In this document: piece by piece, positions 24,637-64,000 of the stretch
How the letters are laid out: each line of letters opens with the position of its first letter
Position numbering within the stretch: position 1 is the first letter of the stretch
Assembly (NCBI GenBank): GCA_044236265.1
Contig: JBIIGV010000233.1
Span: forward strand, 1 to 64,000
DNA: 64,000 bases
Reading direction: 5' to 3'
Origin: Oligoflexales bacterium
Lineage (GTDB): Bacteria; Bdellovibrionota_B; Oligoflexia; Oligoflexales; RGVZ01
Program-made: the position numbers and the translations under genes
Notes under the pieces: generated by a model
Seen by the model: only the letters and a program-made list of their open reading frames with translations
What the model was told of the DNA's origin: nothing
The model's database searches: none

Positions 24637-24644
24637 GTGAGATC

Positions 24645-33678: not shown

Positions 33679-33718
33679 CCTCCTAGTACGGGCGTGAGAA
33701 CTAATTCGGGTAGTGCTA

Positions 33719-36700
33719 ATGTTTCTCAAACGACTGAAATTTATGGCGCAGTTCAAAGCTGGTCAAGCTTTGCTATCTATTGTCATATTCAGTTTCCTAC
33801 TCTCCTGTGAATCCAACTTTTCGGGTAAAGTCCTTAACTCCAATAGAAAAAATAATCCATTTGCTACGGCAAATCTGTTGGAGGGTCAGGTTGCGTTTAA
33901 AACAACAAAGTTGTCGACAAAAGCACGCGGAACTCGCCTTTCTGGAGAAGCCTGTACCGATCAAGCAACGGTCTACTTGACACACTTTGCCACATATCAA
34001 GACAGCTTAGTTATTGAGGTTCGCAAACGCATTCTATCGGTTAAGGCCGATAGCGATGGGCGCTTTAAATTTACGAACTTGAAAGAACAGGGCGTAAATC
34101 TTCAGTCAAAAAATGATATTTATAAGGTGGAAGCAGAGCGTTGCAGCGACTACTACTCAAGGGTCGTGACAGGAGCGCAGGAGCAAAACCTAAGTGCAGC
34201 TGGTACCGCATTTGACTTCACACTCGACAAAACTGTTATCAAAGCAAGTCTTGGATCAGACGACTTTTACGCCAAACTGGAGGATTTGGATAAACTGTAC
34301 AGTCTTGCTGACACTCGCAACTCGGTCGAAGGTGTATTGGAAACACTTCGCACGAGTCGTGAAACACAAAAATCATATAGCAATATTTTTGGTGCTGAAG
34401 ATGTCACTCTTCAGAATATCGAACCCCGAATTGTAATTGAGTCCGTACCCCTTAAAATTCCCGCAACTATTCTGACCCGTTTTGAAGTTTTAGCTGTTTA
34501 CTATTCCGCCGAATTCAATGTCGATTATCGGTGGAAGTTAGACGGCGAAGTTGTCAGCACTGACCCTGGGTTTAGTTGGCGCCCGACGTCGACCCAGCTC
34601 GGTCTGCACACTATCGAGTTGAGTGTTGGGGTGCGAAGCCAGTTTAACCTGGACGCATACCTTAACTCTAAGATCATGAATTACTCGATCAATGTTGTTG
34701 AAGCAACCTCCGATCCACGAACGCCCGTCGTGTCGAGTTTTGCTTTGGCTAACGCCGCGGCTGGTGGATTTATCAATAATGCTCATGCTTCGGACGCAGA
34801 AGCTGTCGCAAGTTTGGTTGCCACCAATTATGATCAAGCCTCATATGCAATTGTCGCCCCGAACGTCACTTGCAATGAGTCTACGTCATTCCCGCTTGCT
34901 TCGATCCCGACTTTTGGAAGCTTTACAGTAGATGGAAGTTACAAAGTCTGTGCAAAGGTTTCGCGAAGTGATGGGGGCACTGTTTACGTAGCAACTCAAA
35001 CGTTGCAACGGGATGTTGTGATACCATCCGTGAGCTTTGTCGATGTGTTGCCCAAGGCTGGATCGACGAACCCGAAGCCGACAATCAAAGGAACGGCATC
35101 CGAGGCATCTTTAGTCTCTCTGTACTACGATGCAAGTTGTTCTTCTGCGAAGTCTTCAGCAACGGCAAACACAGTTTTTGCGTCACCAGGAATGACCGTT
35201 GCATCTGATGTTAATTTAAACAATACGACGACAATCTATGCGCAGGCGGTTGATCCGGCTGGAAACCCATCGCCGTGCTCTTTGATGTTGACGTACACCC
35301 ACGACGACGTAACGCCCATTGTTAAAAATATCAAAGCTAATGTGGCCGATAATGGCTACAAGGCTGGCGATGTTATCCCGATTGAAGTGGAATTCTCTGA
35401 GCCAGTAAAAGTAACTGGCGTGCCGACTTTGACTCTTGAAACAGGATCGTCTGATGTTGTGGTTAATTACACATCTGGATCTGACACCAAGTTTCTGATT
35501 TTCAACTTTACGGTCGGATCAAACCAGACAGCTGCGGACCTCGACTACATTTCAGCGACGGCTCTGTCTGCTTCCGGTGGTAGTATTCAGGATCAAGTTC
35601 AAACTGATGCAGTCCTAACATTGCCAGCCCCTGGGGCAGCTGGCAGTTTGTCGGCAAATAGTAACATTCTGATTGATACGACCATACCAGTAGTCACATA
35701 TGCGTCGATCTCTCCTTCGTCCCCAGGTACAAGTCTGACACCAGCCGTATCGATGTCTCTAAGTGAAAACGCGACCGTGACCTTATACGGTAACAGTAGC
35801 TGTTCGGATGCAATTTCATCGGCTACGGCCCTGTCGGGAACCGGTTTACAAGTTATTACGACGAATACGCTCGCAGCTAACGCTGCGACAACGATCTTTG
35901 CCCGCGCCGTTGATGGTGTGACAAATCAGTCTGTTTGTCACAGTATGATTGTCTATACGCATGACAATATTGCGCCAACCGTCGCGTCTTTTGCGAGATC
36001 ATCTGGCCAAAATTCATTCACTAATTCCGTACCAATAAATTTTGGCGTTCAATTTTCTGAAGTGATCGACCCATCAACATTCACGGCAAGTGATATTTCT
36101 AACACGGGTACTGCGACCGATATCGTTTGGACTGTTACGGACTCTGGTGATCACCGCAACTTTGTTGTAGCTGCGACGCAATCTGGAAACGGTACATTAA
36201 AGCCATCTTTTGCAGCGACTGCGGTGAGTGATCCGGCAGGGAATGCAATTCAGTCCATTTCGACGTCATCTAATGACGTGGCATATTCTATCGCCCTATT
36301 CACTGTAACGTTGAATCAAACAGCTGGGCAGGTTGATCCTGCAAACTCGTTGCCGATATCGTTCACAGCCGTGTTCTCTGATGAGGTGGGTACAGGTCAG
36401 TTTGTCGCTCAAGATATTGTTCAGCAGGGCACTGCTTCAGGAATCACCTGGAATTTGGCAACTACGGATAATATCACATGGACGATCACAGCGACTGCGA
36501 TAACGGGTCAGGGAACCGTCGTTCCTCATATTCCTCAAGATGCAGTTTTAGACCGCTACGGAAACAAAAATGGTGCGTCAACTCACACAGATAACTCCGT
36601 GGTTTATGACATTACGGCTCCGACGATCACATTTACAAATCTTACTCCAGCAAACCCTTCTTCGGAGCTGCGTCCAACGCTCAAAGGTACGGTGTCTGAA

Positions 36701-39700
36701 GCGTCGATTGTAACCTTGTACTTTGATAGTAGCTGTTCGGCAGCCAAATCCGATGCTGTTGCGAACACAGTGCTGCCTATGCCTGGTCTTGCACCAAATA
36801 TTGATGTAGCTGCCGATACAATGACGCCGATTTATGCGCGCGCCATCGATCCCGCAGGCAATATTTCGGTTTGTACGTTAATGGTCAATTACAACCACGA
36901 CGGCACGCCTCCGTTCGTGGTGTCAGTTGGCTCGACTAAAGCTGATGGCTTCTATAAAGCTGGCACGGTCATCCCGATCGCCGTCAATTTCTCTGAAAAT
37001 GTATTTGTGGTTGGTACTCCGCAAATAACGCTCGAAACTGGCTCTACAGATCGAGTTGTAAATTATTCAAGTGGATCAGGCACTCCGACATTAGTCTTCA
37101 ACTACACGGTTCAGGCTGGTGATACGGCAGCCGACCTTGATTATCTGGATACCTCAGCCTTCGCACTAAATGGCAGCACCATTAAAGACTGGGTTGATAA
37201 CGATGCTGTCATGACTCTTCCATCCACCGGCAGCGCGACCAGTATCGCTGGCCAAAAATCAATCGTCATCGATACAGCCGTACCCGCTGTCTCGTTCGTG
37301 TCAATCTCACCTGTATCTCCAGGAATGAGTCGAACTCCCTCGGTGACCGTCAATGTGTCAGAAAATGCGAGTGGGATCGCCTTATTCAGTAACCCAACGT
37401 GTGGATCTGCAATCTCGGCGAGCATAGCGGGATCATCCGGCAACAATACTGTGGTGACGAATACGCTGACCGCTGATGCTCTGACTCCAATTTACGCTCA
37501 AGTGACAGACCTCGCCGGTAACGTTTCCTCCTGTGCGAATATGACCGGCTACCAGCATGACGGTACGCCTGCCGTTGTCACGTCCGTGTCTTCATCTTTG
37601 GCGAACGGAACATATGGTGTCGGCCAAGTGATTCCAATCGAAGTCAGCTTCTCGGAAGTCGTTTATGTCAACGGGACACCGTTTTTGACGCTCGAAACTG
37701 GCGCTACGGATGCCGTCGCCAACTACGCATCTGGTTCCGGTACCAACAAGCTGACTTTTAACTACACTGTCGTGGCCGGCGAAAACACTCTTGATTTGGA
37801 ACTGACGTCACTGAGTGCGATAAATCTTAATTCCGGCACAATCAAGGATCTCGCTGGCAATGACTCAACCGTGACGGTAACGCCACTGGCTGGCGGTAGT
37901 AGCTTATCTGGACAAAAGGCTATCGTCGTGGATACGACAGGGCCGACGCTAACATATGCCTCAGTCTCTCCGGTGCCTCCGGCTACTTCAAGAACACCCG
38001 CGGTGACCATGAGTCTTTCTGAGCCTGCTGCCGTGACTCTGTACAGTGACAGCGATTGTTCTGCCGCGATATCGTCGTCAGTGAGTTTTGCTGCTGGCGT
38101 AGGTCGAACAATCACGACCAACACACTGACAGCTAATGCGACGACGCCGATTTTTGCAAAAGGTATAGATGCTGTAAACAACGCATCAGCTTGTACAAGT
38201 ATGATTGTGTACACGCACGATGATACGCCGCCAGTTGTGATGTCCTTTGCTCGTGCATCGAGTCAGATTGCCCAGACGAACTCTGTTCCAATTAATTTCA
38301 CGCTGACATTCTCTGAGCCTATTAATCCCTCGAGTTTGACGGCGGGAGATATCTCCAATATTGGAAACGCGACAGGAGTTACATGGTCGATCTCTAATTC
38401 AGGCGACAATGCAACTTTCACGGTATCTGCAATCGCAGCAAGTAACGGAACCCTCCAGCCAAGATTGGCTGCGGCGAGCATTGCTGATCATGCCGGCAAT
38501 ACAAACGTAGCCGGTGCGGACTCGCCAAACAATGTCGGTTATTTTGTAGCGGTGTTGACGGTGACGATGAATCAGGCTGCTGGACAAGGGGATCCAGTCA
38601 ACGGTTTACCAATTAGTTACAACGTTGTATTCTCTGGAGCAGTAGGTGCGAATAGTTTTACGACTGGTGATATCGTTCAGAACGGCACAGCTGGGGGAAT
38701 TACTTGGACACTGTCGACCACTGACAATATTAGTTGGCTCCTACGGGCTACTGCGATAGCGACTCCGGGTACAGTCATCCCGTCGATTGCAGCAAGCTCT
38801 GTCATCGATGAATTCCAGAACCAGAATGCGGCTTCAACATCGACCGACAATACAGTCGTCTACGATATTACGCCGCCGACGTTAAGCTTTTCATCTTTGA
38901 CGCCATCCAATCCTTCGCAGTCAATGACGCCGACGATTATCGGTACAGCGTCTGAGCCGTCGACGGTGACGCTATACTACGACTCCGGATGTTCTGTCGC
39001 TAAGTCAGCCACGGTTCCGAACACCTCGTTTGCAAGTCCTGGTATCACGCCGACAGGTAATGTGGCTGCTGATACTGCCACCGTGATTTACGGTATGGCT
39101 ACCGATACGGCAGGGAACATTTCTGCTTGTACGAGTCTTGTCTCTTATGTTCACGATGGTACCGGGCCAAGCGTGACGAGTGTCACGTCTACATTAGCTG
39201 ACGGTCCTTATAAGGCAGGTCAAGTTGTCCCTGTCTTCGTGAACTTCAATGAAAATGTAAACCTCGCTGGTACTCTGCAATTGGCACTAGAGACTGGTGC
39301 GATTGATGCAGTTCTAAACTATGTGTCTGGAAGTGGTACGAGCTCCCTAAGATTTAACTACACAGTGGTTGCTGGAGATACCTCGCTAGATCTTGACTAT
39401 GTCAGTTCAGCTTCTCTGGCTCTTTTAACAGGTACCCTTCGCGACGCTGTCGGAAACGATGCAGTCCTCACGTTACCTGCTCCTGGAGCGTCTGGAAGTA
39501 TGGGTGCAAATAAAGCGCTCATCATCGACACGACGGCGCCAACGATGACTTTCTCAAATACGTTGCCGGTTTCGCCTGGTAACACTCAAACCCCACAGGT
39601 GACGTTCACTATTTCAGAGAACGTACCTACCGTAAGGCTGTTTACAGATAATGCTTGTTCGGTGGGTGCCGCTCCTGCAAGTACTGGATTAATGGGCAGT

Positions 39701-42700
39701 AACACGGTCACGACGAGTGCGTTGCCAGCTAATACTGGTACTAGCCTATACGTGCGCTCCACAGATGCCGCAGGAAACGTGTCGAGTTGTACGCTTCTGA
39801 CTACTTACACCCATGACGGCATCCCAGCGACCGTGACAAACGTATCTTCCTCATCAACGAACGGTACTTACGGGGTTGGTAATACCGTTGCGATTGTGGT
39901 GACGTTCTCTGAAATCGTAAATGTGACTGGCGCTCCTCAGTTGACCTTGGAAACAGGCGCAATCGACGGTGTCGCGAATTACGTCTCCGGCAGTGGAACA
40001 ACGGCGCTAACATTTAATTATGTGGTTTCAGCTGGCGAGTCGTCCCTTGATCTGGATTATGGAAGCACGACGGCTTTGGGTTTGAATGGTGGAACCATTC
40101 GCGATCGGGCCGTGAATAACGCCGATCTGACCCTGCCTGCTGTGGGTGGTGCCAGTGCAATTGCAGCACAAAAAGGTATCATCATCGATACGACGGCACC
40201 GACTATTACATATTCGAGCATTTCTCCTGTGCCACCATCAGCTAGCATGTCCGCTTTCGTGACCCTGCAGGTCTCAGAGGCGTCAACAGTAACTCTCTAT
40301 AGTAATCCTGGGTGTTCTGCCGCTATCTCGAGCGCTAAGGCTATGATCTCTGGCGGCGATCAAATGATCTCAACTGTCAATCTTCCTACAAACACATCGA
40401 CGACCATCTATGCGCGTGCCGTAGATCCTGTTAATAACGTCTCTGAGTGCACGAACATGGTTGTCTATACGCACGATAACATTGCGCCTCAAGTAGATTC
40501 CTTTACACGGGCAGCGACTCAGGCATCATACACGAACTCCCTGCCAATGAACTTCACACTGACGTTCTCTGAGCCGATTATTCCTGAGACACTAACTGGC
40601 AGCGATTTTGTGAATATGGGAACAGCAACCGCAGTAACCTGGGGTGTAGCTGATTCTGGTGATCACCGAACATTTACAGTTTCTGCAACGGCTTCTGGCA
40701 ATGGGACTCTGAGACCTCGTTTGGCCAGTGGCGCTATCACTGACCTTGCAGGTATTGGTAACCCGCTCAACGCAACGTCTGACAATAGTGTGAATTATTC
40801 GATTGCTGCGTTTACTGTCACCGTGAATCAGGCTCCTGGCCAGGGCGATCCGGTGAACTCGCTGCCTATTAATTTTAGAGTCGTATTCTCCGGAGCCGTT
40901 GGTTCAAATAGCTTTACCGCGTCCGATGTTGTTCAAAACGGATCGGCAGAGGGTGTGACCTGGAATCTTTCTACAACCGATAACATCACATGGACCGTTT
41001 CGGCGACCGCTGTGAATATTCAGGGCACCGTGATTCCATTTATCTCTCCAAATACAGTTTTGGATGAATTTGGGAATAATAACGCGGCATCAACAAGTAC
41101 TGATAGCAGTGTCGTTTACGATATCGCTGCACCAGTCCTAACGTTTGCGTCGGTGACGCCGTCAAATCCTGCTGCAACGCGTACGCCGACAGTTTTGGGG
41201 ACCTCGTCTGAACCGTCAACTGTCACCCTCTACTACGATTCCGATTGTAGTACCGCCAAATCTTCGGCTGCATCTAACACAGTCTTCGCGAGTCCAGGTA
41301 TCGCTCTTACCTCGAATGTTGACGCTGACGTAACGACAACAATTTATGGTCGTGCTGTTGACGTGGCAGGAAACGTTTCTATCTGTACGAGTCTTGTCGG
41401 CTACCAGCATGATGGAACAAGTCCGACGGTAACGAACGTGACATCCACACTCGCCAACGGACCCTATAAAGCTGGCCAGCTTATTCCTATTCAGGTCACC
41501 TTCTCGGAGCCTGTCTTTGTTACGGGCGCTATGCAGCTGACTCTGGAGACAGGATTGTCCGATGCGGTGGTGGCGTATACCGTGGGGAGTGGAACAAGTA
41601 CTTTGACCTTCAACTACACCGTTGCTGCTGGTAATACGGCTGCCGATTTGGATTATGTGGGAACCTCAGCGTTGGCACTGATTTCGGGAACCATCAAAGA
41701 TAGCGTCGGTAATGATGCTAATCTCGCCCTGCCAAGTCCTGGGTCGTCTGGAAGCTTGGGTGCCAATAAGAGTCTTTGGATTGACACCACAGCGCCGGTC
41801 TTGGCATTCACCTCGATCAATCCTGTGTCTCCTGGTATCAGCCAAAATCCACAGGTCACATTCACAGTGTCTGAGTTGGTGCCGACTCTAAGGCTTTATA
41901 CGGACGCGATCTGTAGTGCCGCCATTTCAGGTTGGAACACGGGTAGTGCCGGCGCGAACACGATCGCGACAAGTACATTGGCCGGCAATGTTGCAACCAG
42001 CATCTTTGCTCAGGGAACTGACCCAGCAGGTAACACATCAAATTGTACGAGCCTGACGACTTATCTTAACGACGGCTTGGCGCCAACGGTGACAGGCGTC
42101 ACGTCAACTGCGGCGGATGGAACTTACGGCGGCGGCCAAGTTGTACCAATCAAGGTTGATCTTAGCGAAGTTGTTTTTGTGACGGGAACTCCCCAGTTGA
42201 CTCTTGAAACCGGTGCCTCCGACGCGGTGGTCAACTATTCATCGGGTAGCGGAACCACGTCTTTGATCTTCAACTACACAATCGTTCCTGGTCACGACTC
42301 CGTTGACTTGAACTATGCGTCGATGTCTGCGCTTGTTGCGAATGGTGGTAGCATTAAGGACCTTGCCGGTAATGATGCTAACCTTGCATTAGCGGCCCTT
42401 GATGCTGCGTCGAGTTTGGCGAGTCAGAAGGCTATCGTGATCGACACGACGGTCCCGGTGATGTCTTATGTTTCAATCTCTCCGGTTCCGCCGGCGCAAA
42501 GCCAGACACCAACTGTAACGTTTAGCTTGTCTGAGCCTTCAACCGTAACGCTGTACCGTGAGTCGGGATGTTCGACGGCGATTTCCAGTGCGATTCCACT
42601 AGCTGCCGGACCTGCTCAATCAATCACGACGAACACGTTGACATCAAACGCAGCGACAACGATTTTTGCCAAGGCCATTGATACGGTTACCAACCCGTCG

Positions 42701-57700: not shown

Positions 57701-60700
57701 GTATCTAGTGCTGCCGCAGGTACATCGGGTGCTAACACCATCACGACCAATAACCTGACGGCTGATAATTCGACGTTGATCTTTGCTCAGGCTACAGATG
57801 CAGCGGGTAACGCTTCGGCTTGTACATCGATGACAAGCTACACCCATGATGGCACGGCACCAACGATCACGGGCGTAAGCTCGACCTCGGCTAACGGCAC
57901 CTACCGCGTCGGTCAGACCATTCCAGTAACGGTAACCTTTGCAGAAAATGTCTACGTCACTGGAACTCCATCCTTACTCATGGAAACAGGCTCCACGGAT
58001 ACGGCTGCAAGCTATGTCTCTGGATCTGGTACAAGCACTCTGACCTTCAACTACGTGGTGGCGTTAACTGACCAGTCATCTGATCTTGATTATCAGAGTG
58101 CTGCAGCACTGACGGTCGCTGGCGCAACGATCCAAGATCTTGCTGGCAACAACGCGACCTTAACTTTGGCTGCACCAGGTGCAACCAATAGTCTTGCTGA
58201 TCAGAAGGCAATCGTCATCCAAACGACCAAGCCAACGATTGCTTACACATCAATTAGCCCAGCCTCACCAGGCACAAGCCGTACTCCAACGGTCTCGATG
58301 ACTCTGTCTGAGGCGGCAACGGTCACGCTGTACACCGACAACACATGCAATACAGCCAAGTCTGCAGCAACAGCATTGTCTGCGGGTGCTGGCCAGACGG
58401 TGACAAGCTACACACTGACAGCGAACGCTGCGACAGATCTCTACGCCCAGGCGGTGGGTGCATTCGGCAATACGTCACTTTGTACGATGCTCGTCTCCTA
58501 CACCCATGACAGCATTGCACCGACAGTGACGTCATTTGTCAGAGCAAGTGGTCAGGCAGCGTTTACCAACTCTGTTCCTGTGAACTTCACTATGACCTTC
58601 AGCGAAGCCATTGATCCGGCATTGTTCACCGCAAATGATATTAGTAACTCTGGTACTGCTAATGGTGTAACCTGGACGGTCACCAACTCTGGTAATAACA
58701 CGACCTTCACAATCGCAGCGACCAGCTCAGGCAATGGTACATTGATTCCTCGCCTTGGAGTGACAGGAATTGCTGACCCTGCAGGCAATACGAACGGCAG
58801 CCCTTACGATACAACGCAAAACGTCAGTTACACGGCAGCCACATTCACAGTCACAGTCAATCAGGCGTCTGGCCAGGCAGATCCAGTGAAGACGCTGCCT
58901 GCCCAATACACCGTCGTATTCTCAAGTGCAGTTGGCAACTCAAGCTTTGATGTCATTGACGTCAGCAATAGTGGTACCGCAACCGGTGTTGTCTGGGGAC
59001 TTGCGACGTCTGATAACATCACCTGGACACTGACGGCAACGTCTGCGTCTTCTGATGGAACGATCATCCCAGTTATTGCGCAGAACACGGTTCAAGATGA
59101 GTTCGGAAACCAAAACGGCGCTGCAACAGCCACCGATCGCTCGATTACATTTGACAGCGCTGCTCCGACATTCTCCGGACCATACACTGTCAGCCCAGCC
59201 AATCCTTCGAGCAGTCTAACTCCAACCATTCGTGGTGTAACGTCAGAGGCTTCGACGGTAACGATGTACTACGATTCAGGTTGTATTACGCCTAAGTCTG
59301 CTGGCACAGCAAACACAGCCTTTGTCACCCCAGGCATTACGGTTAACTCAAATGTTAATGCTAACGGTACAACGACGATCTACGCCAAAGCGCAGGACAC
59401 AGCCGGAAACGAGTCCAGCTGTACAACGATTGTGGCTACTTATACGCACGATAGCATGGGTCCATCTGTTACAAACGTGACCTCCAGCCAATCAAATGGA
59501 AGCTACAAGGTCACAGCGGCGCAGATTATTCCAATTAGCTTGACCTTCTCAGAGGCTGTCAACGTGACGGGTACGCCGACCTTGACCCTTGAGACTGGAG
59601 CAACGGACGCTATTGCAACTTATGCAAGTGGATCCGGAACATCCACTCTGGTCTTCAACTATACGGTCTTCGCAGGCGATACAAGTAGTGACCTCGACTA
59701 TGCTGGAACGGCGGCTCTGGCCCTCAGCGGTGGAACGATGACTGATGCTGTTGGTAATAATGCAACATTGACTCTTCCTGCTCCTGGTGCTGCTGGAAGT
59801 CTTGGTGCGAACAAGGCTCTGATTATCGATACGACCTTGCCGACCGTAGCGTTTACGTCGATTTCACCTGTATCTCCGGGCGCAAGCTTGTCACCACAAG
59901 TGACCATCAATAGCTCGGAAGCTGGCAGCATGGAGCTCTTCTCGACCAGCAACTGTAACTCGTCGATTTCGACTGCCATCACGGGCTCGGTTGGAGCCAA
60001 CACGATTGCCACGAATAGCCTTGCACCCAATGCTTCGACCTCTATCTTTGCAAAAGTCACTGATGCTGCTGGTAATGCATCGAGCTGTACATCGATGACC
60101 ACCTATCTCCACGACGGCGTCGATCCAACCGTTACTTCAGTTAGTTCGACTGCAGCAAACGGTAGTTATGGAACCGGTCAGACCATGGCTATCACGGTTT
60201 CATTCTCTGAGGTGGTTTACGTCACGGGTACACCAAATCTGACCCTTGAGACTGGTGCAACCGATGCTGTCATCAATTATGCTTCAGGATCTGGTACGAA
60301 TACGTTGACCTTCAACTACACAGTTGCTTCAACTCATAACTCTCTAGATCTTGATTATGAGTCCACCACGGCACTTCTACTGAATGGTGGAACGATTAAG
60401 GATGTGTCTCTCAATAACGCCGTATTAACCCTGCCAACAGTTGGCGGTGTTAACAGTATTGCAGGTCAGAAGGCGATCGTTATCGACAACGTGGTTCCGA
60501 CGATCACCTACACATCGATGACTCCAGCGTCTCCTGCGATGGGTCTAACACCAACCTTGACCATGTCCTTGTCTGAGGCGGCGACGGTCACTCTCCATAG
60601 CGACCACACATGTACGGCGCCAATTTCTGTAGATACAGCGCTGTCTTCTGGTGCTGGCCAGACGATTACGACTCAGGCGTTGACAGCAAATGCTACAACC

Positions 60701-63700
60701 TCGATTTACGCTAAGGCAATTGATGTTGTGAATAATCCGTCGGTCTGTACGTCGTTAACGACCTATACTAATGACAGCCTAGCACCGACAGTCGTCTCCT
60801 TTGCGCGTGCGGCTGGGCAGGGTAGCGTTACGAATTCCGTGCCGGTGAACTTTACCATCACCTTCTCCGAGGACATGAGCGCTGCAAGCTTTACGGGTGC
60901 TGATATTAGCAATACGGGAACGGCAACTGGTGTTACTTGGGCTGTCACTCAGGTTAGCAGCACAGTCTTCACGGTAGCTGCATCGAGTGCAAATAATGGT
61001 ACTCTCATTCCACGCCTGGCAAATGCAAGTGTCACTGATGTTGTCGGCAATGCGACAACTGCACAAGCTGATGCGACCAATAGTGTGAACTTGGTCAATG
61101 GTGGATTGACAGTGACCGTCAACCAAGCCTCGGGCCAGGCTGATCCAACCAATGGCAGCACAATCAACTACACGGTTGTCTTCTCGAGAGCAATCGACCC
61201 AACAACCTTCGCGTCAGACGACATATTCCAAAACGGCACGGCGACTGGTTTAACATGGACGATCACCACATCGGACAATATAACCTTCAATCTTGCTGCA
61301 AGCGGTATGAGTGCAACGAGTACGGTGATTCCATCGATTTCTTCGACTCGGGTCAAAGATACCTTTGGTAACGATAATGCTGCATCAACGTCGACCGATA
61401 ATACAGTCAACTACGATGTCACTGCCCCAACACTAACCTTTGCATCTATTTCACCTTCAAGTCCTGCATCCACATTAATGCCGATGGTTTCAGGTACAGC
61501 GTCGAAGCCATCGACGGTCACGCTCTATTATGATTCCGGTTGTTCGACGGCTAAGTCCTCTGCGGAGTCCAATACGGTATTTGCGTTGCCAGGTATTGCC
61601 CTGACAGCCAATGTCAGCAGTAATACAGCAACATCAATTTACGGTAAGGCTGTCGACGCATTGGGCAACGCATCAAGCTGTTCGGCATTGACGACCTACA
61701 CTCATGATGGAATCAGTCCAACAGTCACGAACGTCACAGCTGTCCACGCCGATGGCACATTCAAGGCTGGTGAGCTGATTCCAATCAAGGTTACCTTCTC
61801 TGAAGCGGTTACCGTTACTGGAACTCCGCGCTTAACCCTTGAAACAGGCTCTGTCGATGCAGTAGTGAATTATACGAGCGGTTCGGGTACGGCTGAGCTG
61901 ACCTTCAACTATACAGTCTTCGCTGGTGACACAACCTCAGACCTTGACTATATCAGCACGTCAGCTCTCGCGCTTAACGGTGGAACCATTGTTGATCATG
62001 TGGGCAATGCGGCTAGTGTGACGTTGCCAGCCGTCGGCGGTGTCGCAAGTATTGCTGGTCAGAAGTCCCTAGTTATAGACACGACGGCGCCGACGGTGGC
62101 GTTCACGTCCATCACGCCGGTTTCACCATCTAATAATCTAACACCAGCAGTCGCTCTAACATTGTCGGAGACAGCGTCAGATGTTCGTCTCTACAGTGAC
62201 TCTGGCTGTAGTAGTGCTCTCTCGAATGCAGCCAATGCAGCCGCCGGTCCATACACCATCACGACAACGACTTTGACGGCGAATCAAACCAACAATATTT
62301 ACGCTCGTACAACCGATGTGGCGGGTAACCAGTCTGCCTGTACTTTGATGACAAACTACGCACACGATGGCGTGGCGCCTACCGTGACGTCGGTAAGCGC
62401 ATCATCAGCGAACGGAACCTACCACGTTGGCCAAACCGTTGCGGTGACGGTCGCATTCAGCGAAGTCGTTACAGTCTCCGGAACGCCACAGTTAACACTT
62501 GAAACAGGTGCAAGCGATGCGGTGATCGATTACGTATCGGGATCAGGAAGCAATACGCTCACCTTCAATTACACAGTTGCACTCAGTCATGCGTCACCCG
62601 ACCTTGATTACACATCGACCGCGTCTTTGGCGGCTAACGGAGGATCTGTTCAGGATGGATCTGGAAACAATGCGACGTTGACGTTACCTGGTGTCGGTGG
62701 GCCGAACAGTATCGCGGGCCAAAAAGCGATTGTGATCCAAACGTCAAAACCAACGATCGCGTTCACATCTATTACGCCTAGCTCACCGGGAACCAGCCAG
62801 ACTCCGACTGTGACGATGTCGCTATCGGATGCATCAACGGTCACGCTTTACAGCGATGGTGGTTGCTCGACAGCGATTTCTGCTCCAACGGCGCTATCAG
62901 CTGGAGCAGGTCAATCGGTTATTACGCAGACATTGGCTGCAAATGGTCAAACTCAGATCCACGCTCAGGCAGTGGCAGCGTTCAGCAATACATCACTGTG
63001 TACGAGTTTGGTTAGCTACACCCATGACAACGTGGCTCCAAGTGTGACATCTTTTGCGCGCGCAGGTGGTCAGGTTGAGTTCACAAACTCTGTTCCTGCT
63101 AACTTCAGTATTACATTCAGCGAGGCGATCAATCCTGCGTCCCTTACTGCGGCTGATATCACAAACGCTGGTACTGCTGCGGGAGTTACCTGGACAGTCA
63201 CCAACTCCGGTAATAACACGACCTTCACAGTGGCGGCCTCGACTGCAGGTAACGGCACGATTCAGCCACGCCTCGCTATTGGGGCAGTGACCGATCCAGC
63301 GGGCAATGCAAGTGGTAGCCAGGTCGATGCGTCCAACAGCGTTAGCTACACTCAAGCAACATTCACCGTCACATTGAACCAGGCTTCTGGCCAGGCAGAT
63401 CCAGTTAAAACCTTGCCAGTGCTCTACACGGTTGTATTCTCTAGCCCTGTAGGTGCTTCGAGCTTTACGGATGCTGATATCCAAAATCAAGGTTCTGGTA
63501 CGACGGTCACCCAGTGGCAGCTTGAAACCGCCGATAATGTCACATGGACTTTGAAAGCGATGGCTGTCACCGGCAATGGAACGATCATGCCAGTGATCAC
63601 AGCAAATAGCGTTCAGGATGCCTTCGGAAACTTAAACGGTGCGTCGACCTCTACCGATCGCACTGTGACCTACGATACGACGGCGCCGACACTGACATAT

Positions 63701-64000
63701 GTCGCATTGACTCCAGCTAACCCGTCGACGTCGCTGATGCCGACCATCTTGGGAACAGCTTCAGAGACATCGACAGTGACTCTCTATTACGACGGAGGAT
63801 GTAGCACTCCTAAGTCGGTTGCTACAGCGAATACTCAGTTTGCAACTCCAGGAATTGCCGTTACCGGTAACGTCAATAGTAACGCTTCAACCGTCATCTA
63901 CGCACAGGCAGTGGACACGGCAGGAAATCTCTCAAGTTGTACAAGCCTTGTGACCTATAACCATGACGGCGTTGGTCCGACCGTAACGAATGTGACGTCT
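33719..64000 (+). CDS. Giant repetitive Ig-like surface lipoprotein / adhesin (3'-partial, at least 10,094 aa)
   Basis: Frame +2 opens after TGA 33695. ATG 33719 (or 33743) gives MFLKRLKFMAQFKAGQALLSIVIFSFLLSC (lipobox). All 14 repeat anchors I located and the last codons (..YNHDGVGPTVTNVTS) are in frame +2. The ORF track lists no terminated frame +2 ORF here, consistent with no stop. Thr/Ser/Val/Ala/Gly/Asn-rich with recurrent D-x-x-G-N and D-x-x-x-P Ig-like motifs. Confidence 0.93.
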   Translation, partial: MFLKRLKFMAQFKAGQALLSIVIFSFLLSCESNFSGKVLNSNRKNNPFATANLLEGQVAFKTTKLSTKARGTRLSGEACTDQATVYLTHFATYQDSLVIEVRKRILSVKADSDGRFKFTNLKEQGVNLQSKNDIYKVEAERCSDYYSRVVTGAQEQNLSAAGTAFDFTLDKTVIKASLGSDDFYAKLEDLDKLYSLADTRNSVEGVLETLRTSRETQKSYSNIFGAEDVTLQNIEPRIVIESVPLKIPATILTRFEVLAVYYSAEFNVDYRWKLDGEVVSTDPGFSWRPTSTQLGLHTIELSVGVRSQFNLDAYLNSKIMNYSINVVEATSDPRTPVVSSFALANAAAGGFINNAHASDAEAVASLVATNYDQASYAIVAPNVTCNESTSFPLASIPTFGSFTVDGSYKVCAKVSRSDGGTVYVATQTLQRDVVIPSVSFVDVLPKAGSTNPKPTIKGTASEASLVSLYYDASCSSAKSSATANTVFASPGMTVASDVNLNNTTTIYAQAVDPAGNPSPCSLMLTYTHDDVTPIVKNIKANVADNGYKAGDVIPIEVEFSEPVKVTGVPTLTLETGSSDVVVNYTSGSDTKFLIFNFTVGSNQTAADLDYISATALSASGGSIQDQVQTDAVLTLPAPGAAGSLSANSNILIDTTIPVVTYASISPSSPGTSLTPAVSMSLSENATVTLYGNSSCSDAISSATALSGTGLQVITTNTLAANAATTIFARAVDGVTNQSVCHSMIVYTHDNIAPTVASFARSSGQNSFTNSVPINFGVQFSEVIDPSTFTASDISNTGTATDIVWTVTDSGDHRNFVVAATQSGNGTLKPSFAATAVSDPAGNAIQSISTSSNDVAYSIALFTVTLNQTAGQVDPANSLPISFTAVFSDEVGTGQFVAQDIVQQGTASGITWNLATTDNITWTITATAITGQGTVVPHIPQDAVLDRYGNKNGASTHTDNSVVYDITAPTITFTNLTPANPSSELRPTLKGTVSEASIVTLYFDSSCSAAKSDAVANTVLPMPGLAPNIDVAADTMTPIYARAIDPAGNISVCTLMVNYNHDGTPPFVVSVGSTKADGFYKAGTVIPIAVNFSENVFVVGTPQITLETGSTDRVVNYSSGSGTPTLVFNYTVQAGDTAADLDYLDTSAFALNGSTIKDWVDNDAVMTLPSTGSATSIAGQKSIVIDTAVPAVSFVSISPVSPGMSRTPSVTVNVSENASGIALFSNPTCGSAISASIAGSSGNNTVVTNTLTADALTPIYAQVTDLAGNVSSCANMTGYQHDGTPAVVTSVSSSLANGTYGVGQVIPIEVSFSEVVYVNGTPFLTLETGATDAVANYASGSGTNKLTFNYTVVAGENTLDLELTSLSAINLNSGTIKDLAGNDSTVTVTPLAGGSSLSGQKAIVVDTTGPTLTYASVSPVPPATSRTPAVTMSLSEPAAVTLYSDSDCSAAISSSVSFAAGVGRTITTNTLTANATTPIFAKGIDAVNNASACTSMIVYTHDDTPPVVMSFARASSQIAQTNSVPINFTLTFSEPINPSSLTAGDISNIGNATGVTWSISNSGDNATFTVSAIAASNGTLQPRLAAASIADHAGNTNVAGADSPNNVGYFVAVLTVTMNQAAGQGDPVNGLPISYNVVFSGAVGANSFTTGDIVQNGTAGGITWTLSTTDNISWLLRATAIATPGTVIPSIAASSVIDEFQNQNAASTSTDNTVVYDITPPTLSFSSLTPSNPSQSMTPTIIGTASEPSTVTLYYDSGCSVAKSATVPNTSFASPGITPTGNVAADTATVIYGMATDTAGNISACTSLVSYVHDGTGPSVTSVTSTLADGPYKAGQVVPVFVNFNENVNLAGTLQLALETGAIDAVLNYVSGSGTSSLRFNYTVVAGDTSLDLDYVSSASLALLTGTLRDAVGNDAVLTLPAPGASGSMGANKALIIDTTAPTMTFSNTLPVSPGNTQTPQVTFTISENVPTVRLFTDNACSVGAAPASTGLMGSNTVTTSALPANTGTSLYVRSTDAAGNVSSCTLLTTYTHDGIPATVTNVSSSSTNGTYGVGNTVAIVVTFSEIVNVTGAPQLTLETGAIDGVANYVSGSGTTALTFNYVVSAGESSLDLDYGSTTALGLNGGTIRDRAVNNADLTLPAVGGASAIAAQKGIIIDTTAPTITYSSISPVPPSASMSAFVTLQVSEASTVTLYSNPGCSAAISSAKAMISGGDQMISTVNLPTNTSTTIYARAVDPVNNVSECTNMVVYTHDNIAPQVDSFTRAATQASYTNSLPMNFTLTFSEPIIPETLTGSDFVNMGTATAVTWGVADSGDHRTFTVSATASGNGTLRPRLASGAITDLAGIGNPLNATSDNSVNYSIAAFTVTVNQAPGQGDPVNSLPINFRVVFSGAVGSNSFTASDVVQNGSAEGVTWNLSTTDNITWTVSATAVNIQGTVIPFISPNTVLDEFGNNNAASTSTDSSVVYDIAAPVLTFASVTPSNPAATRTPTVLGTSSEPSTVTLYYDSDCSTAKSSAASNTVFASPGIALTSNVDADVTTTIYGRAVDVAGNVSICTSLVGYQHDGTSPTVTNVTSTLANGPYKAGQLIPIQVTFSEPVFVTGAMQLTLETGLSDAVVAYTVGSGTSTLTFNYTVAAGNTAADLDYVGTSALALISGTIKDSVGNDANLALPSPGSSGSLGANKSLWIDTTAPVLAFTSINPVSPGISQNPQVTFTVSELVPTLRLYTDAICSAAISGWNTGSAGANTIATSTLAGNVATSIFAQGTDPAGNTSNCTSLTTYLNDGLAPTVTGVTSTAADGTYGGGQVVPIKVDLSEVVFVTGTPQLTLETGASDAVVNYSSGSGTTSLIFNYTIVPGHDSVDLNYASMSALVANGGSIKDLAGNDANLALAALDAASSLASQKAIVIDTTVPVMSYVSISPVPPAQSQTPTVTFSLSEPSTVTLYRESGCSTAISSAIPLAAGPAQSITTNTLTSNAATTIFAKAIDTVTNPSECTQLVVYSHDNTSPAVSSFARNATQPAMTNSLPINFTITFSEPINPSSFVSTDLSNGGTATGVTWFINNTGDNQSFTVSVTNSGNGTIIPRLASGSIADIAGNTNSGITSASNSVNYSVAPYTVSVNQAPTQIDPVNTLPVNFRVVFSSAVGNNTFTPADIVQNGTATGITWSLSTTDNITWTVAATAISGGSGTVIPSIAENTVTDEFGNINGASTSTDNTVIYDVTPPVVTYSSLAPANPSSELRPSFLGSVSEISTVTLYYDGSCANARSATVPNTQFASPGITVNSNVTANNSTIIYAKAVDTANNESACTSLVSYLHDSIGPSVVSVSANIADGSYKAGMVLPITVTFTENVYVNGTLQITLETGTFDAVVNNSSGSGTDTLVFNYVVAPGEVTPDLEYSGSAALALISGTIKDAVGNNAVLTLPATGASGSLGLNKSIIIDTTAPTLTYTNIFPASPGNTQTPQVSLDLTEPVTVLRLYSDASCTAAISPASTGTIGPNTVTTNTLTANASTTIYGQGTDAAGNVSLCTLLTSYQHDGISPTVTSVSSSSANGSYGVGQTVAVTVVFSEPVLVSGTPQITLETGSSDAVVNMTTGTGTNTLTFNYTVRAGDTTGDLDYLSNAALALNGGIIKDPAENLAVLALPNTGGATSIAGQKNIVIDTTAPVITYQSVSPSSPAMSQTPTLTVTMSETATVTLYSNGSCSSAVSTPTVLNGGVGRTISTNALPANTTTTLYAKAVDPVNNVSSCSVMVVYTHDITSPTVSSFTRSAGQLASTNSVPVNFTLTFSEPINPNSFTAADISNFGTSTGVLWTVTNTGDNTSFIVAATVASNGTLQPRLASGGVTDVAGNSNFGNVNSSNTVNYFVAAYTVMVNQNDGQAESTNALPINFTVVFSGAVGNNTFDTSDIVQNGTASGITWSLSSSDGITWNLSATSILGDGTVIPSVAANTVVDEFGNNNGASTSSDNSVNYDVTLPIVAFSSVSPSNPAATLKPTIRGTVTESSTVALYYDSGCSTAKSSAMSNTVFASPGITVTGNVNANTTTAIYAKAVDAVGNVSSCTYLTTYNHDGIGPVVTGVNATMSDANYKAGQTIPITVTFNELVFVTGTPQITLETGSADAIVNYTSGSGTNTLTFNYIVFAGDTSADLDYISTTALTFNAGTIKDGVGNSATLTLAAPGSSGSLGANRAIIIDTTAPVITYNSIAPTSPGISLAPQLTLTLSEAVTAFRFYSDPVCSSPISSSASMGSGSNTRATDTLAANVVTTIYGQSVDQAGNTSLCTMLTSYRHDDVGPTVSSVTSTANNATYGVGAVIPVTVTFTEPVFVTGTPQITLETGVTDAVVNYSSGSGTSTLRFNYTVALGQNTGDLEYVGTSSLSLNSGSILDTAGNAVDLALPALGSAGSIAGQKNIVVDTTAPTLTYESIAPVSPGMSQMPIVTVALSEPANVTLYSDHTCSAAISGSTSLSSGSGQAITTFTLTSNTTTDIYGKAVDPVSNASSCLNLVVYTHDNVAPSVASFVRAAGQPSFTNSIPINFTMTLNEPVDVSTITASDISNTGTATGITWSVTSVSNTVFTVSATSSGTGTLIPRLANGSFQDVAGNVSISQFTASESVNYTASPFTVTINQASSQGDPSATDPVNFTVVFSRAVGSGSFTAADIVQNGSLGSITWTLTTSDDITWNLAASGMAATGTLIPSIASGTVVDLYGNSNAASTSTDNTVNFDITPPTLAFASLSPSNPAATLRPTIRGTASKASTVTLYYDVSCSTAKSAGASNTSFATPGITPTANVNSNTTTIIYAKAVDSLGNASSCTSLVTYSHDGVSPTVTGVSSTLANGPYKAGQLIPITISFTEVVTVTGTPSLTLETGAADSVVNYSSGSGTNTLTFNYTVFNGDTAADLDYVSSAALALNNGSIKDPVGNDATLTLPAPGALNSLGSNKNLVIDTTAPALTYTSILPVPPSSSSTPQVSLSSNEAATNLQLYSNSSCSTAISSPASGTVGGNVISSTGVNLNAPTTVYAQATDSAGNISTCTLMTTYVHDDVPPTITSVSSSSGNGTYRVGQSLAITATFSDPVTVSGVPQLAMETGAVDTVANYSSGSGSSTLTFTYTIALNDTSSDLDYAGTSALALNGGSIIDAAGNNAALTLPAPAGTGSLGAQKALVIQTAPPVLSYTSIAPTSPGTSRQPVVTLSVNEAATVTLYSDSGCGTAISTGTAISTGAGQTITAYTLPSNTGTSIYGKAVAAYGNTSACTNLVVYTHDNIAPTVTSFVKAAGQNSFTNSIPLNFTLTFSEPINASSFTVNDLMNIGTATGVSWEIVPVSSTVYTVSVTSAGNGSVTPQLVSGTVTDPAGNATANNYDSADTVNYTAAAFTVSVNQASGQADPVNVLPVSYTVVFSGAVGSSSFDVSDVTQAGTASGVTWGLSTADNITWTLTATAASSSGTIIPSIAADRVVDAFGNNNSAATSTDKTVTYDITSPTVTFASLSPANPSSSLTPTIRGTVSEASTVTLYYDVNCSTGKSAATASTAFASPGIVVNANVNSNTSTAIYAKAVDNVGNESSCTSLVSYTHDGVSPTITNVTSGLADGTYKAGQVVPVSLTFSEAVTVTGTPKISLETGATDAVVAYSSGSGTNTLTFNYTVFSGDVSADLDYISTTALALDGGTIRDHVGNNAVVTLPAPGTSGSLAANKALVVDTAPPSVTFTSISPVSPGSSRTPQLVVNTSEAMSDIQIYTDASCTTSVSSSQSAGVGSKSITTSPLPANAQSSLYAYGLDIAGNPSACTLMTSYLHDDLGATIAFVTSTSSNGTYGVGNQIVITVRFSEAVYVTGVPQLTLETGASDAVVNYASGSGTNTLSFNYNVLSGQSSVDLDYQSTTSLSLNSGTIKDVSGNNATLTLPTPGDSNSLAGQKDIVIDNTAPTITYTSISPPSPGISQTPTVTMDLSESATVTLYSDNTCTAAISNATLLSGGAGQTVTTISLTPNATTTIYAKGLDAVSNASTCTNLVSYVHDNTPPLASTFARASGQPALTNSLPINFTVAFNEPIAASSFTSADISNGGTATGTTWTVTAVSSNTYTIAATTANNGTLIPRIALGGVTDIAGNATTSMNNSSETVNYSTAALSVVINQAAGQADPVASGPITFTVQFSNPVNPGTFTAADIVQNGTATGISWALTTTDDTTWNLTASGMAGSGTVIPSIADTTVVDVFGNNNAASTSTDNTVTYDITAPSLTFSSLSPSNPGSTLTPSVRGTASKASTVTLYFDSLCSTSKSAATASTAFSSPGITLTGLVNSNTTTTIYAMAVDALGNASGCTQMVVYTHDGAPPTVTSISSTLADGYYMAGQLIPITVTFSENVTVTGTPNLALETGSTDATINYTSGSGSNVLTFNYTVAAGDTSSDLDFVGSSSLVLNGGTIRDVIGNNAILTLPAPGTAGSLAANKALVVDTAAPSLTYTSINPVSPNSSQTPQVTLVLSEAAQNVQLYSNPVCNNAISSSSVGSVGTNVITTTTLLSNATTSIFAKMTDLAGNDSFCVSMTNYANDMTAPGVSSVTSTSTNGTYVVGQTIPVSITFSENVYVTGTPQLTMETGATDTVADYASGSGTNTLVFNYVIALNDASLDLDYHSAGALGANGGTIKDLAGNNAVLTLASPGAASSLGANKAIVIQTTLPTISSASISPASPGSTRTPTVSMTLSDASTVTLYSNSDCSTAISAAKSLVAGSGQTVTTYTLASNVATQIYGKAVAAFGNTSVCTSLISYTHDDVAPFVSSFVRASGQNAFTNSTPVNFTLTLSESINVSTLTAVDISNAGTATNVVWSVASVSSSVFTISANSSDNGTIIPRLAANAVADPAGNTNVAQASATDTVSYTAATYTVTLNQATGQSDPINALPVNFTVVFSSAVGSSSFDVSDITQTGTASGITWTLASADQITWTLSVTAVTTPGSIVPMIASNRVVDEFGNQNGQSASTDNSVVYDTAAPVVTFSSVTPANPSSSLNPRFFGSVSEASVVTLYYDVSCTTAKSSATANTVFASPGILVTGAVNANTTTTVFAKAVDTAGNASVCTNIVTYTHDGIGPTVTDVTTGLANGSYKAGQAVPISVTFSEVVTVTGTPNLTLETGATDAVLAYSSGSGSNTITFNYTVFAGDTSADLDYVATTSLVANGGTIKDAVGNDATLTLPAPGAAGSLGGNKGVIIDTTAPSVSYTSISPVSPGATRTPQVTISLSEAASSVELFSDAGCSASVSAAAAAAAGSNTITTTNLTANGSTSLFAKMTDIAGNASSCSLMTSYTHDGNDPTVTVVSSTKADGTYGTGTLIPITVTFSENVYVTGTPRITLETGATDALVDYTSGSGTTTLTFNYTVGAGEASADLDYESTGALVLNSGTIKDLSGNNANLALPALASASSLAGQKAIVLDQTAPTITFTSINPVSPGMSQTPTLTLSLSEAATVTLYTDSGCSAAVSSATSLASGAGQTIATNSLNANVSTSLWAKGVDLVGNVGSCSSMVTYIHDSAAPTVSTFARAGGSPTNSLPVNFTLTFNEPINPASLTSADFTNAGTATGVAWSVTNSGDSTTFTVAATVSGNGTLQPRLASGGMTDVAGNANASAVTASNSVSYSVAAFSVAINQAAGQSDPVRTLPITFTAVFSDAVNPTTFDASDIVQNGTAGGITWNLSSTDNITWTITASGLGASGSVIPSIASSTVKDTFGNDNAASASTDNTVSYDITVPTFSSITVSPANPAATLTPTVLGVVSKASTVTLYYDSSCTTAKATPAANTVFATPGITVTGNVNPNTTTVIYGQAVDALGNTSLCTNLVTYTHDGAAPTVSGVSANLANGPYKAGQVVPVEVTFSENVTVTGVPQITLETGATDAVVTYTSGSGTNKLTFNYTVFAGDTSADLDYVATTSLALNGGTIKDSVGNNATLTLPAPGASGSLGASKDLVIDTTSPTLAYTSITPVSPGTTRTPQVALTISEGVTNIQLYSNALCNAAVSSAAAGTSGANTITTNNLTADNSTLIFAQATDAAGNASACTSMTSYTHDGTAPTITGVSSTSANGTYRVGQTIPVTVTFAENVYVTGTPSLLMETGSTDTAASYVSGSGTSTLTFNYVVALTDQSSDLDYQSAAALTVAGATIQDLAGNNATLTLAAPGATNSLADQKAIVIQTTKPTIAYTSISPASPGTSRTPTVSMTLSEAATVTLYTDNTCNTAKSAATALSAGAGQTVTSYTLTANAATDLYAQAVGAFGNTSLCTMLVSYTHDSIAPTVTSFVRASGQAAFTNSVPVNFTMTFSEAIDPALFTANDISNSGTANGVTWTVTNSGNNTTFTIAATSSGNGTLIPRLGVTGIADPAGNTNGSPYDTTQNVSYTAATFTVTVNQASGQADPVKTLPAQYTVVFSSAVGNSSFDVIDVSNSGTATGVVWGLATSDNITWTLTATSASSDGTIIPVIAQNTVQDEFGNQNGAATATDRSITFDSAAPTFSGPYTVSPANPSSSLTPTIRGVTSEASTVTMYYDSGCITPKSAGTANTAFVTPGITVNSNVNANGTTTIYAKAQDTAGNESSCTTIVATYTHDSMGPSVTNVTSSQSNGSYKVTAAQIIPISLTFSEAVNVTGTPTLTLETGATDAIATYASGSGTSTLVFNYTVFAGDTSSDLDYAGTAALALSGGTMTDAVGNNATLTLPAPGAAGSLGANKALIIDTTLPTVAFTSISPVSPGASLSPQVTINSSEAGSMELFSTSNCNSSISTAITGSVGANTIATNSLAPNASTSIFAKVTDAAGNASSCTSMTTYLHDGVDPTVTSVSSTAANGSYGTGQTMAITVSFSEVVYVTGTPNLTLETGATDAVINYASGSGTNTLTFNYTVASTHNSLDLDYESTTALLLNGGTIKDVSLNNAVLTLPTVGGVNSIAGQKAIVIDNVVPTITYTSMTPASPAMGLTPTLTMSLSEAATVTLHSDHTCTAPISVDTALSSGAGQTITTQALTANATTSIYAKAIDVVNNPSVCTSLTTYTNDSLAPTVVSFARAAGQGSVTNSVPVNFTITFSEDMSAASFTGADISNTGTATGVTWAVTQVSSTVFTVAASSANNGTLIPRLANASVTDVVGNATTAQADATNSVNLVNGGLTVTVNQASGQADPTNGSTINYTVVFSRAIDPTTFASDDIFQNGTATGLTWTITTSDNITFNLAASGMSATSTVIPSISSTRVKDTFGNDNAASTSTDNTVNYDVTAPTLTFASISPSSPASTLMPMVSGTASKPSTVTLYYDSGCSTAKSSAESNTVFALPGIALTANVSSNTATSIYGKAVDALGNASSCSALTTYTHDGISPTVTNVTAVHADGTFKAGELIPIKVTFSEAVTVTGTPRLTLETGSVDAVVNYTSGSGTAELTFNYTVFAGDTTSDLDYISTSALALNGGTIVDHVGNAASVTLPAVGGVASIAGQKSLVIDTTAPTVAFTSITPVSPSNNLTPAVALTLSETASDVRLYSDSGCSSALSNAANAAAGPYTITTTTLTANQTNNIYARTTDVAGNQSACTLMTNYAHDGVAPTVTSVSASSANGTYHVGQTVAVTVAFSEVVTVSGTPQLTLETGASDAVIDYVSGSGSNTLTFNYTVALSHASPDLDYTSTASLAANGGSVQDGSGNNATLTLPGVGGPNSIAGQKAIVIQTSKPTIAFTSITPSSPGTSQTPTVTMSLSDASTVTLYSDGGCSTAISAPTALSAGAGQSVITQTLAANGQTQIHAQAVAAFSNTSLCTSLVSYTHDNVAPSVTSFARAGGQVEFTNSVPANFSITFSEAINPASLTAADITNAGTAAGVTWTVTNSGNNTTFTVAASTAGNGTIQPRLAIGAVTDPAGNASGSQVDASNSVSYTQATFTVTLNQASGQADPVKTLPVLYTVVFSSPVGASSFTDADIQNQGSGTTVTQWQLETADNVTWTLKAMAVTGNGTIMPVITANSVQDAFGNLNGASTSTDRTVTYDTTAPTLTYVALTPANPSTSLMPTILGTASETSTVTLYYDGGCSTPKSVATANTQFATPGIAVTGNVNSNASTVIYAQAVDTAGNLSSCTSLVTYNHDGVGPTVTNVTS
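35012..64000 (+). repeat. Degenerate ~2.25-kb (750-753 aa) coding super-repeat: 1 short, 12 full and 1 partial unit
   Basis: The Y(Y/F)DxxC anchor is at 35123, 36719, 38975, 41231, 43490, 45746, 47999, 50252, 52505, 54758, 57008, 59267, 61526 and 63785. Spacings are 1596 and then 2250-2259 nt, all multiples of 3. Confidence 0.92.

Follow-up and report, generated by a model that had tools for sequence, protein, structure and literature searches.

We describe a gene of an Oligoflexales bacterium whose assembled part encodes at least 15,156 amino acids (1.52 MDa) and whose product most likely forms a chain of Ig-like beads about half a micrometre long, tied to the cell by a lipid. It would be a variant of the giant Ig-stalk adhesins that is lipid-anchored, disulfide-rich, hierarchically repeated and paired with a lineage-specific barrel. 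The reading that we favor, with better than even confidence, is that of a surface lipoprotein adhesin stalk that uses general export machinery and has an anchoring barrel at its base. The window (the whole stretch of 64,000 nt analyzed) corresponds to the initial 64 kb of the 79,186-nt contig C202 of genome G000, and three genomes of the same genus, designated G001, G004 and G006, hold orthologues of the giant gene. The features of the locus are as follows.

31870..33579, + strand: partner gene, 569 aa, with an N-terminal hydrophobic signal, a LysM-like domain, a linker and an outer-membrane beta-barrel ending in Trp
33719..33808, + strand: lipoprotein (Sec/SPII) signal peptide of the giant protein, aa 1-30, by sequence and pattern match (not SignalP)
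33809..34723, + strand: N-terminal head, aa 31-335 (305 aa), containing a single pair of cysteines; aa 263-290 give a weak PKD-like match, below cut-off
34724..35011, + strand: single cysteine-pair module, aa 336-431; other long proteins of relatives carry repeats of this module type
35012..36607, + strand: unit u0, five modules (C1-E1-C3-F-Q) by module HMMs; the same short first unit occurs in G001 and G004
36608..63673, + strand: units u1-u12, each 750-754 aa (C1-E1-C2-E2-C3-F-Q), by module HMMs and AlphaFold2 model
63674..64000, + strand: start of u13; beyond the window, the frame covers the rest of u13, u14-u18 and six modules of u19, up to contig position 79,186

The giant open reading frame is a real gene. 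Translation of the window revealed that frame +2 runs from the ATG at 33719 to 64000 through 10,094 codons with 0 stops, as the earlier note had claimed and had proposed to check in this way, and the other five frames over the gene contain 339-695 stops each; base composition alone would yield such a stop-free run with a chance of ~1e-200. The short ORFs tracked here in other frames are, as was suspected, shadows. When open ends were allowed, the ORF listing returned a 3'-open frame at 33713..64000; thus, the gene was probably absent from the ORF track because 3'-open ORFs otherwise go unlisted. The lower bound of 10,094 aa put forward earlier holds within the window and understates the protein, since extension along the contig, also proposed there, kept the frame open up to the last base at 79,186, with no stop reached. 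The gene by itself takes up 1.4% of the G000 assembly, and the assembled part of its product has a pI of 4.08 and a Ser+Thr content of 29%. Size alone is not exceptional; one corpus holds 3,650 proteins of at least 10,000 aa (10.64898/2026.06.07.730766). A promoter scan at the locus stayed at chance level (3 found, 3.1 expected), and RNA data sets numbered 0 among the listed holders of the DNA, a count with no bearing on expression.

As for the start of the protein, a Met occupies the place of ATG 33719 in all three orthologues, with GTG 33713 and ATG 33743 as alternative starts. The lipobox reads LLSC in G000 (Cys30 at 33806-33808) and LTSC at the same place in G001, G004 and G006, so that it is conserved in all four. 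The residue at +2 after the lipobox Cys is acidic in 4/4 (Asp in three), and positions +2 to +8 are rich in G/S/D/N to differing degrees (ESNFSGK, 4/7; DSxFSGS, 5/7); a strict GGG or ND(N/D) sorting motif at +2 to +4 is absent from the giant protein. The head is 44-45% identical in the three orthologues, and a search of 130 genomes of the class gave strong matches in four (G000, G001, G004 and G006) and one weak match (E 5e-4) in a fifth. The lone cysteine-pair module at aa 336-431 has 42 matches within a 6,734-aa frame of another family of the order (G029:C9:26930-40084, - strand).

Beyond this module, the protein consists of an array of modules, labeled with HMMs of seven module types that were built from the units. 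The complete unit comprises 752 aa in seven modules (C-E-C-E-C-F-Q), with C modules of 96-97 aa carrying two Cys, E modules of 124 aa and F and Q modules of 106-109 aa; profile comparison grouped the seven types into three classes (C1/C2/C3, E1/E2 and F/Q). The contig holds 137 modules in unbroken order, namely five in u0, then 18 times seven, then six. Exactly 90 of them are complete by residue 10,094, where the window ends, which agrees with the count of about 90 (5 + 12x7 + 1) made by eye in the earlier note, and the array is, as stated there, still running at 64000. Each of the 59 C modules contains a pair of cysteines spaced by 44-46 residues, and the other 78 modules are free of cysteine.

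AlphaFold2, run on an alignment of the 20 units, predicted an all-beta structure with seven beta-sandwich modules per unit (pLDDT 90.1, pTM 0.43), in which the individual modules are modeled with confidence and the hinges between them are uncertain. With this unit model, Foldseek placed Aureispira GhpA first (E 6.5e-12, TM 0.25), and titin was also among the fold matches. VIA-align related the F module to the S-layer SbsC domain (Z 9.7, rmsd 2.9, 95 aligned). For the C modules, it returned FnIII domains (Z 8.9, rmsd 2.2, 84 aligned), and over a stretch of three modules it matched the adhesin FdeC (Z 8.6, rmsd 8.9, 270 aligned). Such matches (TM 0.25 to GhpA; VIA Z 8-10) are generic to Ig-like folds and indicate no function. 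In Pfam, the F module matched Big_5; the giant protein also gave a weak Big_13 match, and Big_2 was not found in it at E up to 0.05. None of the 8 proteins compared with NCBIfam matched a family, and searching PDB sequences with the unit profile yielded 0 matches. The E-type module is a widespread Ig-like module of 124 aa, with no Pfam match in the unit scan, and marine proteins (L016, L019, L020, L046, L047, L057 and L060) carry 25-34 of them in tandem.

The motifs DxAGN and DxxGN occur 53 and 107 times in the giant protein, compared with means of 0.5 and 3.7 after shuffling. In SiiE, DxAGN connects Ca2+ sites (PMC6272769), and the DxxGN motifs and junction Asp residues here are putative Ca2+ sites as judged from the sequence. 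The RTX motif GGxGxD occurs 0 times in 15,156 aa, and no sortase motif is present at the assembled end. By hydropathy only, the signal peptide is the highest 19-residue stretch in the protein (1.72), followed by one at 1.62. Scaling from SiiE, MpIBP and GhpA gave an estimated length of 450-630 nm for the assembled part and of 300-415 nm for the part in the window, in line with the "few hundred nm" suggested before. The beta-sandwich modules, the Ig and FnIII matches and the conserved lipobox lend support to the earlier reading of an extended surface filament, its location and shape being what we infer from them. The lipid anchor, the disulfides, the two-unit repeat and the partner barrel gene do not figure in the earlier note.

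The partner gene ends 139 nt before the giant gene, and a stop codon and an intergenic gap also separate the two in G001, G004 and G006. Its LysM-like domain (~aa 45-218) is a weak lead (score 0.87, TM <0.5) and the N-terminal domain is doubled in G001; the linker contains 22% Pro over aa 215-335 and is Ala-rich in G001. The barrel (aa 339-569, 231 aa) matched outer-membrane barrels in the ESM Atlas at TM 0.73-0.74, with a feature score of 0.95 and 143/256 features shared. The partner protein matched no Pfam or NCBIfam family, and its AlphaFold2 model, made without an alignment, reached a pLDDT of 36.5 and was left unused. The gene lies directly upstream of the giant gene in 4/4 carriers and was not found in the other 126 of the 130 class genomes. 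Further out, the genes flanking the locus in G000 are unlike those in G001, G004 and G006. Upstream of the partner gene, window positions 28409-31600 (+) encode a pair of lipoprotein-like ORFs plus a protein of 423 aa, by eye similar to an outer-membrane barrel; these had no Pfam or NCBIfam match and do not occur at this place in the three related genomes. Farther upstream (23119-26993, +), a DEDD exonuclease/UvrC-like gene is followed by a Rad3/DinG-like helicase.

The RecA of the host had its best genus-named relatives in Pseudobacteriovorax (81-82%), which fits Oligoflexales, and most of the data sets containing the DNA are metagenomes from lakes or fresh water. Predation is a putative trait of the host lineage: it has been inferred for Oligoflexia from gene content (PMC8067016), and a single isolate has been described (PMC10701089). 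The orthologue frames in G001, G004 and G006 span 6,449, 3,036 and 878 aa, all cut by contig ends, and the module order is kept in G001 and G004, the two scanned; G004 contains five open pieces, 9,829 aa in total. The functional tip was described earlier as unseen, and the C-terminus of the G000 protein indeed lies beyond the assembled contig. On G001:C6, a 5'-open frame of 7,342 aa is built of the same units and ends in Big_12, 13 RCC1 stretches, a last Ig-like domain (read by eye) and a stop, the tip being a propeller of ~700 aa. Judging from module order and open ends, this frame would be the C-terminal half of the G001 giant gene. The last 1,012 aa of this orthologue gave no Pfam match to an RTX or T9SS sorting domain. 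No close copy of the G001 tip was found in G000 (best propeller match, 25% identity). Since stalks in this genus carry different tips (RCC1, FnIII, chitobiase-C-like and Gly-rich, labels assigned partly by eye), the G000 tip may differ from that of G001.

Searches of public data for the missing C-terminus gave 0 matches in a DNA-pattern scan of metagenome contigs and 18 loci, all with E modules only, in a metagenome protein scan from which near-identical records were possibly left out. Protein searches for the full-length giant returned only proteins sharing modules. Contigs of 258-463 kb with identical neighboring proteins exist on record. Outside the genus, the E module forms long arrays in Marinimicrobia, Planctomycetes, Bacteriovoracaceae and others, and the seven-module order was found in 0 of the 9 genome loci, 18 metagenome loci and 7 proteins scanned. 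Downstream of the orthologue's stop by 2.9 kb, after two metabolic genes, lies a pair of outer-membrane-factor-like and RND-like genes, labeled by eye (G001:C6:24930-29290, +; L028).

Export via Sec, rather than by type I or type IX secretion, is the best reading of these data. On the favored model, the giant protein would be threaded through Sec and lipidated at Cys30, and its modules would fold one by one in the periplasm, where the disulfides would form; these steps are deduced from the signal and the cysteine pairs in the light of established knowledge. For transfer of the chain to the external face of the outer membrane, the type II secretin would be the most plausible route, as for InvL and PulA. 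Disulfides, together with Ca2+ bound at DxxGN and junction Asp residues, would stiffen a stalk of 0.45-0.63 µm or longer, which would hold a ligand-binding propeller tip beyond the surface and thereby capture particles, algae or prey from the lake water. Bracing or retaining the base would most likely be the role of the barrel protein, possibly tied to the wall by its LysM-like domain.

Genome G000 encodes GspD-like and PilQ-like secretins, three Lgt (paralogues on C217, C23 and C82), LolA and VKOR; the best model of the GspD-like secretin, TIGR02517, matched only the secretin domain and fell short of the cut-off for the whole protein. A loose pattern picked out 211 lipobox-like ORFs in this genome. 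DsbB was not found in G000, where only VKOR was detected, nor was GspN (PF01203), needed for lipoprotein export in Acinetobacter, found in this 89% complete genome; searches for Slam and SprA gave no match in G000, the control genomes being likewise blank. Export of lipoprotein adhesins by type II secretion systems (T2SS) is documented (PMC9245377; PMC12802150). Passage of a 1.5-MDa chain by this route is an extrapolation, since InvL has only four Ig-like/lectin domains (PMC9245377).

Known adhesins share parts of this design. MpIBP measures 1.5 MDa and 0.6 µm with >130 domains (PMC5550230); the giant protein resembles it in size, and both MpIBP and SiiE in the long Ig-like extender and the distal binding region (here a putative one, in the orthologue). 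With SiiE it also shares the DxAGN motif and a low pI (4.24 in SiiE; PMC6272769), and the tandem BIg extender with Asp-rich Ca2+ motifs typical of giant type I adhesins is matched here by sequence motif. However, MpIBP and SiiE are exported unfolded by type I secretion, whereas the giant protein has a lipoprotein signal, 59 Cys pairs and no RTX motif in its assembled length; MpIBP, LapA and SiiE have a C-terminal secretion signal and RTX repeats near that end and lack an N-terminal Sec signal, in contrast to the lipobox in all four proteins compared here, the own C-terminus of the giant being beyond the contig. Moreover, MpIBP has ~120 identical repeats, unlike the heteromeric seven-module units described here, which are 50-68% identical. 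Leptospira LigA/LigB and Acinetobacter InvL likewise combine an N-terminal lipid anchor with tandem Ig-like domains; LigB has Big_5 domains (PMC7821625), and InvL is exported by T2SS (PMC9245377). The giant protein differs from them in having ten to thirty times more domains, an RCC1-like tip (in the orthologue) and a neighboring barrel gene; leptospiral Lig proteins contain 12-13 tandem Big_2 domains of ~90 aa, whereas its 137 modules include no Big_2. A lipobox and a GspD secretin in the genome go with the T2SS surface lipoproteins InvL and PulA, and G000 has a lipobox and a GspD-like secretin.

GhpA of Aureispira, a T9SS substrate that catches prey, is also a disulfide-bearing Ig-like filament encoded beside genes for a barrel and a peptidoglycan-binding anchor (10.1101/2024.01.29.577165). 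GhpA is anchored through a C-terminal T9SS sorting domain, and its disulfides join neighboring domains (same source), whereas the giant protein is anchored N-terminally, has its Cys pairs within modules and forms a chain 2.5 times longer. The Omnitrophota giants share sizes of >10,000 aa, an origin in uncultured aquatic bacteria and a proposed role in cell contact (10.1101/2023.11.21.568195; 10.64898/2026.06.07.730766), but mostly have many TM helices and enzyme domains instead of an all-beta lipoprotein stalk. The word "lipoprotein" is absent from the main texts of 10.1101/2023.11.21.568195, PMC11573180 and 10.64898/2026.06.07.730766. In the literature covered, no title or abstract start described such a protein in Oligoflexales; subscription journals lay mostly outside this coverage, and survey supplements might list the sequence. 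The compared Gram-negative adhesins of such size rely on unfolded type I export or the type IX translocon, and the compared lipoprotein adhesins have 4 to ~14 domains, far below at least 137 modules and 59 cysteine pairs. How the giant protein leaves the cell is a concrete problem, for which the adjoining gene is a candidate partner, and the protein offers a way to study attachment to food or prey in Oligoflexales, a group with a barely known lifestyle.

The intimin/invasin family has an N-terminal LysM. This type Ve family shows the same order of barrel, Ig repeats and tip (PMC9245377); there, barrel and Ig passenger form one polypeptide, whereas here the genes are separate and the giant protein has its own lipobox. 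The LysM-like/barrel protein might itself be the translocator of the giant, with the pair representing an inverse autotransporter cut into two genes, an alternative that we regard as unlikely. In its favor, the same four class genomes carry both the barrel and the head of the giant, adjacent in all of them even where other flanks differ; the barrel family is tiny, with 6 representatives among 1.84 billion proteins; its best Atlas cluster carries OpcA and Autotransporter families; and in G000 and G001 a second giant lipoprotein family also lies beside a small barrel-like gene. Yet the four carriers are kin within one genus, so that the pairing probably had one origin; at ~230 aa and ~ten strands by eye, the barrel is narrow for disulfide-bonded modules, and it matches no Pfam or NCBIfam family; and smaller lipoproteins with related modules (C28 and C32) have, by inspection, no barrel directly upstream. 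A broader version, an undescribed two-gene system in which a wall-tethered barrel either exports or clamps a periplasm-folded, disulfide-bonded lipoprotein of >1.5 MDa and the two genes make a half-micrometre prey- or alga-catching filament in Oligoflexales, has perhaps a modest chance of being right; if so, the second giant family with its own barrel-like neighbor would be a parallel case.

It is also improbable that the chain serves as a protective or spacing coat (anti-grazing, anti-phage, anti-predator or drag) instead of an adhesin, in which case its length and Ser/Thr surface would matter and its tip would not. Stalk accounts for >95% of the assembled chain, the Ser+Thr content makes glycosylation possible, module order and unit length are strict, and the F module resembles an S-layer domain, all of which would suit a coat; however, the G001 frame ends in a distinct propeller tip, and tips are exchanged among related stalk proteins, as ligand-binding parts would be. 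Still less probable is a protein that stays in the periplasm as an envelope scaffold or is cut and shed as a matrix component. An acidic +2 residue can hold lipoproteins in the inner membrane (PMC12802150), and LigA (PMC7821625) and InvL (PMC9245377) are partly released, but a rod of at least 0.45 µm with a terminal propeller would be ill-suited to the periplasm, and known chains of such build are extracellular. The adhesin stalk thus remains our preferred reading.

That a repetitive gene from a metagenome assembly is an artefact or a decaying pseudogene is hardly credible here. The longest exact DNA repeat in the array is only 26 nt, the 20 units are 50-68% identical to each other in protein and 53-64% in DNA, and 4-fold sites between units are 21-40% identical, near saturation; repeat collapse or inflation is therefore unlikely. 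Contigs of four runs (from four studies) covered 30/30 bins of contig positions 59,187-79,186 in each case, with no indel listed; these are 4 of the 20 runs holding the stretch, one possibly the source of the assembly, and the comparison extended over this 20 kb, which no single record spans. Among 128 differences, the 40 classed comprised 35 synonymous, 5 non-synonymous and 0 stop changes, which argues against a pseudogene, and the orthologues keep the same module order. Between G000 and G001, codon positions are 60/70/32% identical (52% aa), and the giant gene is, as far as sequence comparison can tell, under purifying selection. On the side of an artefact, the G001 copy at G001:C1:1-19348 (L023) has at the contig end an exact 1,336-nt repeat, with copies 9,027 nt (four units) apart, which reflects either a recent duplication or misassembly. 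A further array piece lies behind an N gap at G001:C1:310-313 kb. One contig of run X1 reaches ~480 nt beyond the end of C202, and 56 nt there match a C1 module exactly where the next unit is due, so the array probably continues past 79,186.

Starting with u5, pairs of units that share parity resemble each other more closely than other pairs do (61.3% versus 56.8%; permutation p 0.00085), an effect not seen among u1-u5. A tree of u1-u18, from which the incomplete units u0 and u19 were left out, split u5-u18 into two groups of seven, the even units (support 100/99) and the odd ones (90/90). The array expanded through duplication of a block of 14 modules (~4.5 kb). In a quick tree of the C3-F-Q block, the units of G001 alternate in this way too, in separate clades. 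The nested repeat (module, seven-module unit and 14-module block) is a clear record of giant gene growth and of stability after DNA repeats diverge.

The second giant lipoprotein family comprises the following pieces.

G000:C106:1643-4213, + strand: piece of 857 aa with a lipobox, the probable N-terminus
G000:C64:29942-53407, - strand: piece of 7,822 aa, a 5'-open frame
G001:C2, - strand: orthologous frame of 7,605 aa, start near 196,900

It contains about five repeats of ~1,110 aa at 42-46% identity, with no Pfam match over 3,000 aa and a chitobiase-C domain near the end; in G000 and G001, a small lipoprotein and a gene of 216-219 aa, barrel-like by eye, lie divergently upstream. The C64 frame was considered as the missing C-terminus of the giant protein and rejected, its repeat being a different one; with its probable N-terminus on C106 and its orthologue inside G001:C2, it is hence not the giant's end. 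C30, another candidate, was likewise rejected: it shares an overlap of 394 nt (96%) with C28 and matches C202 at no more than 76%. C28 and C30 (G000:C28:2-1888, - strand; C30:1-3378, + strand) hold a smaller paralogue, at which the assembly broke because of near-identical C-E repeats (88-96% in DNA), and whose tip consists of two Gly-rich domains.
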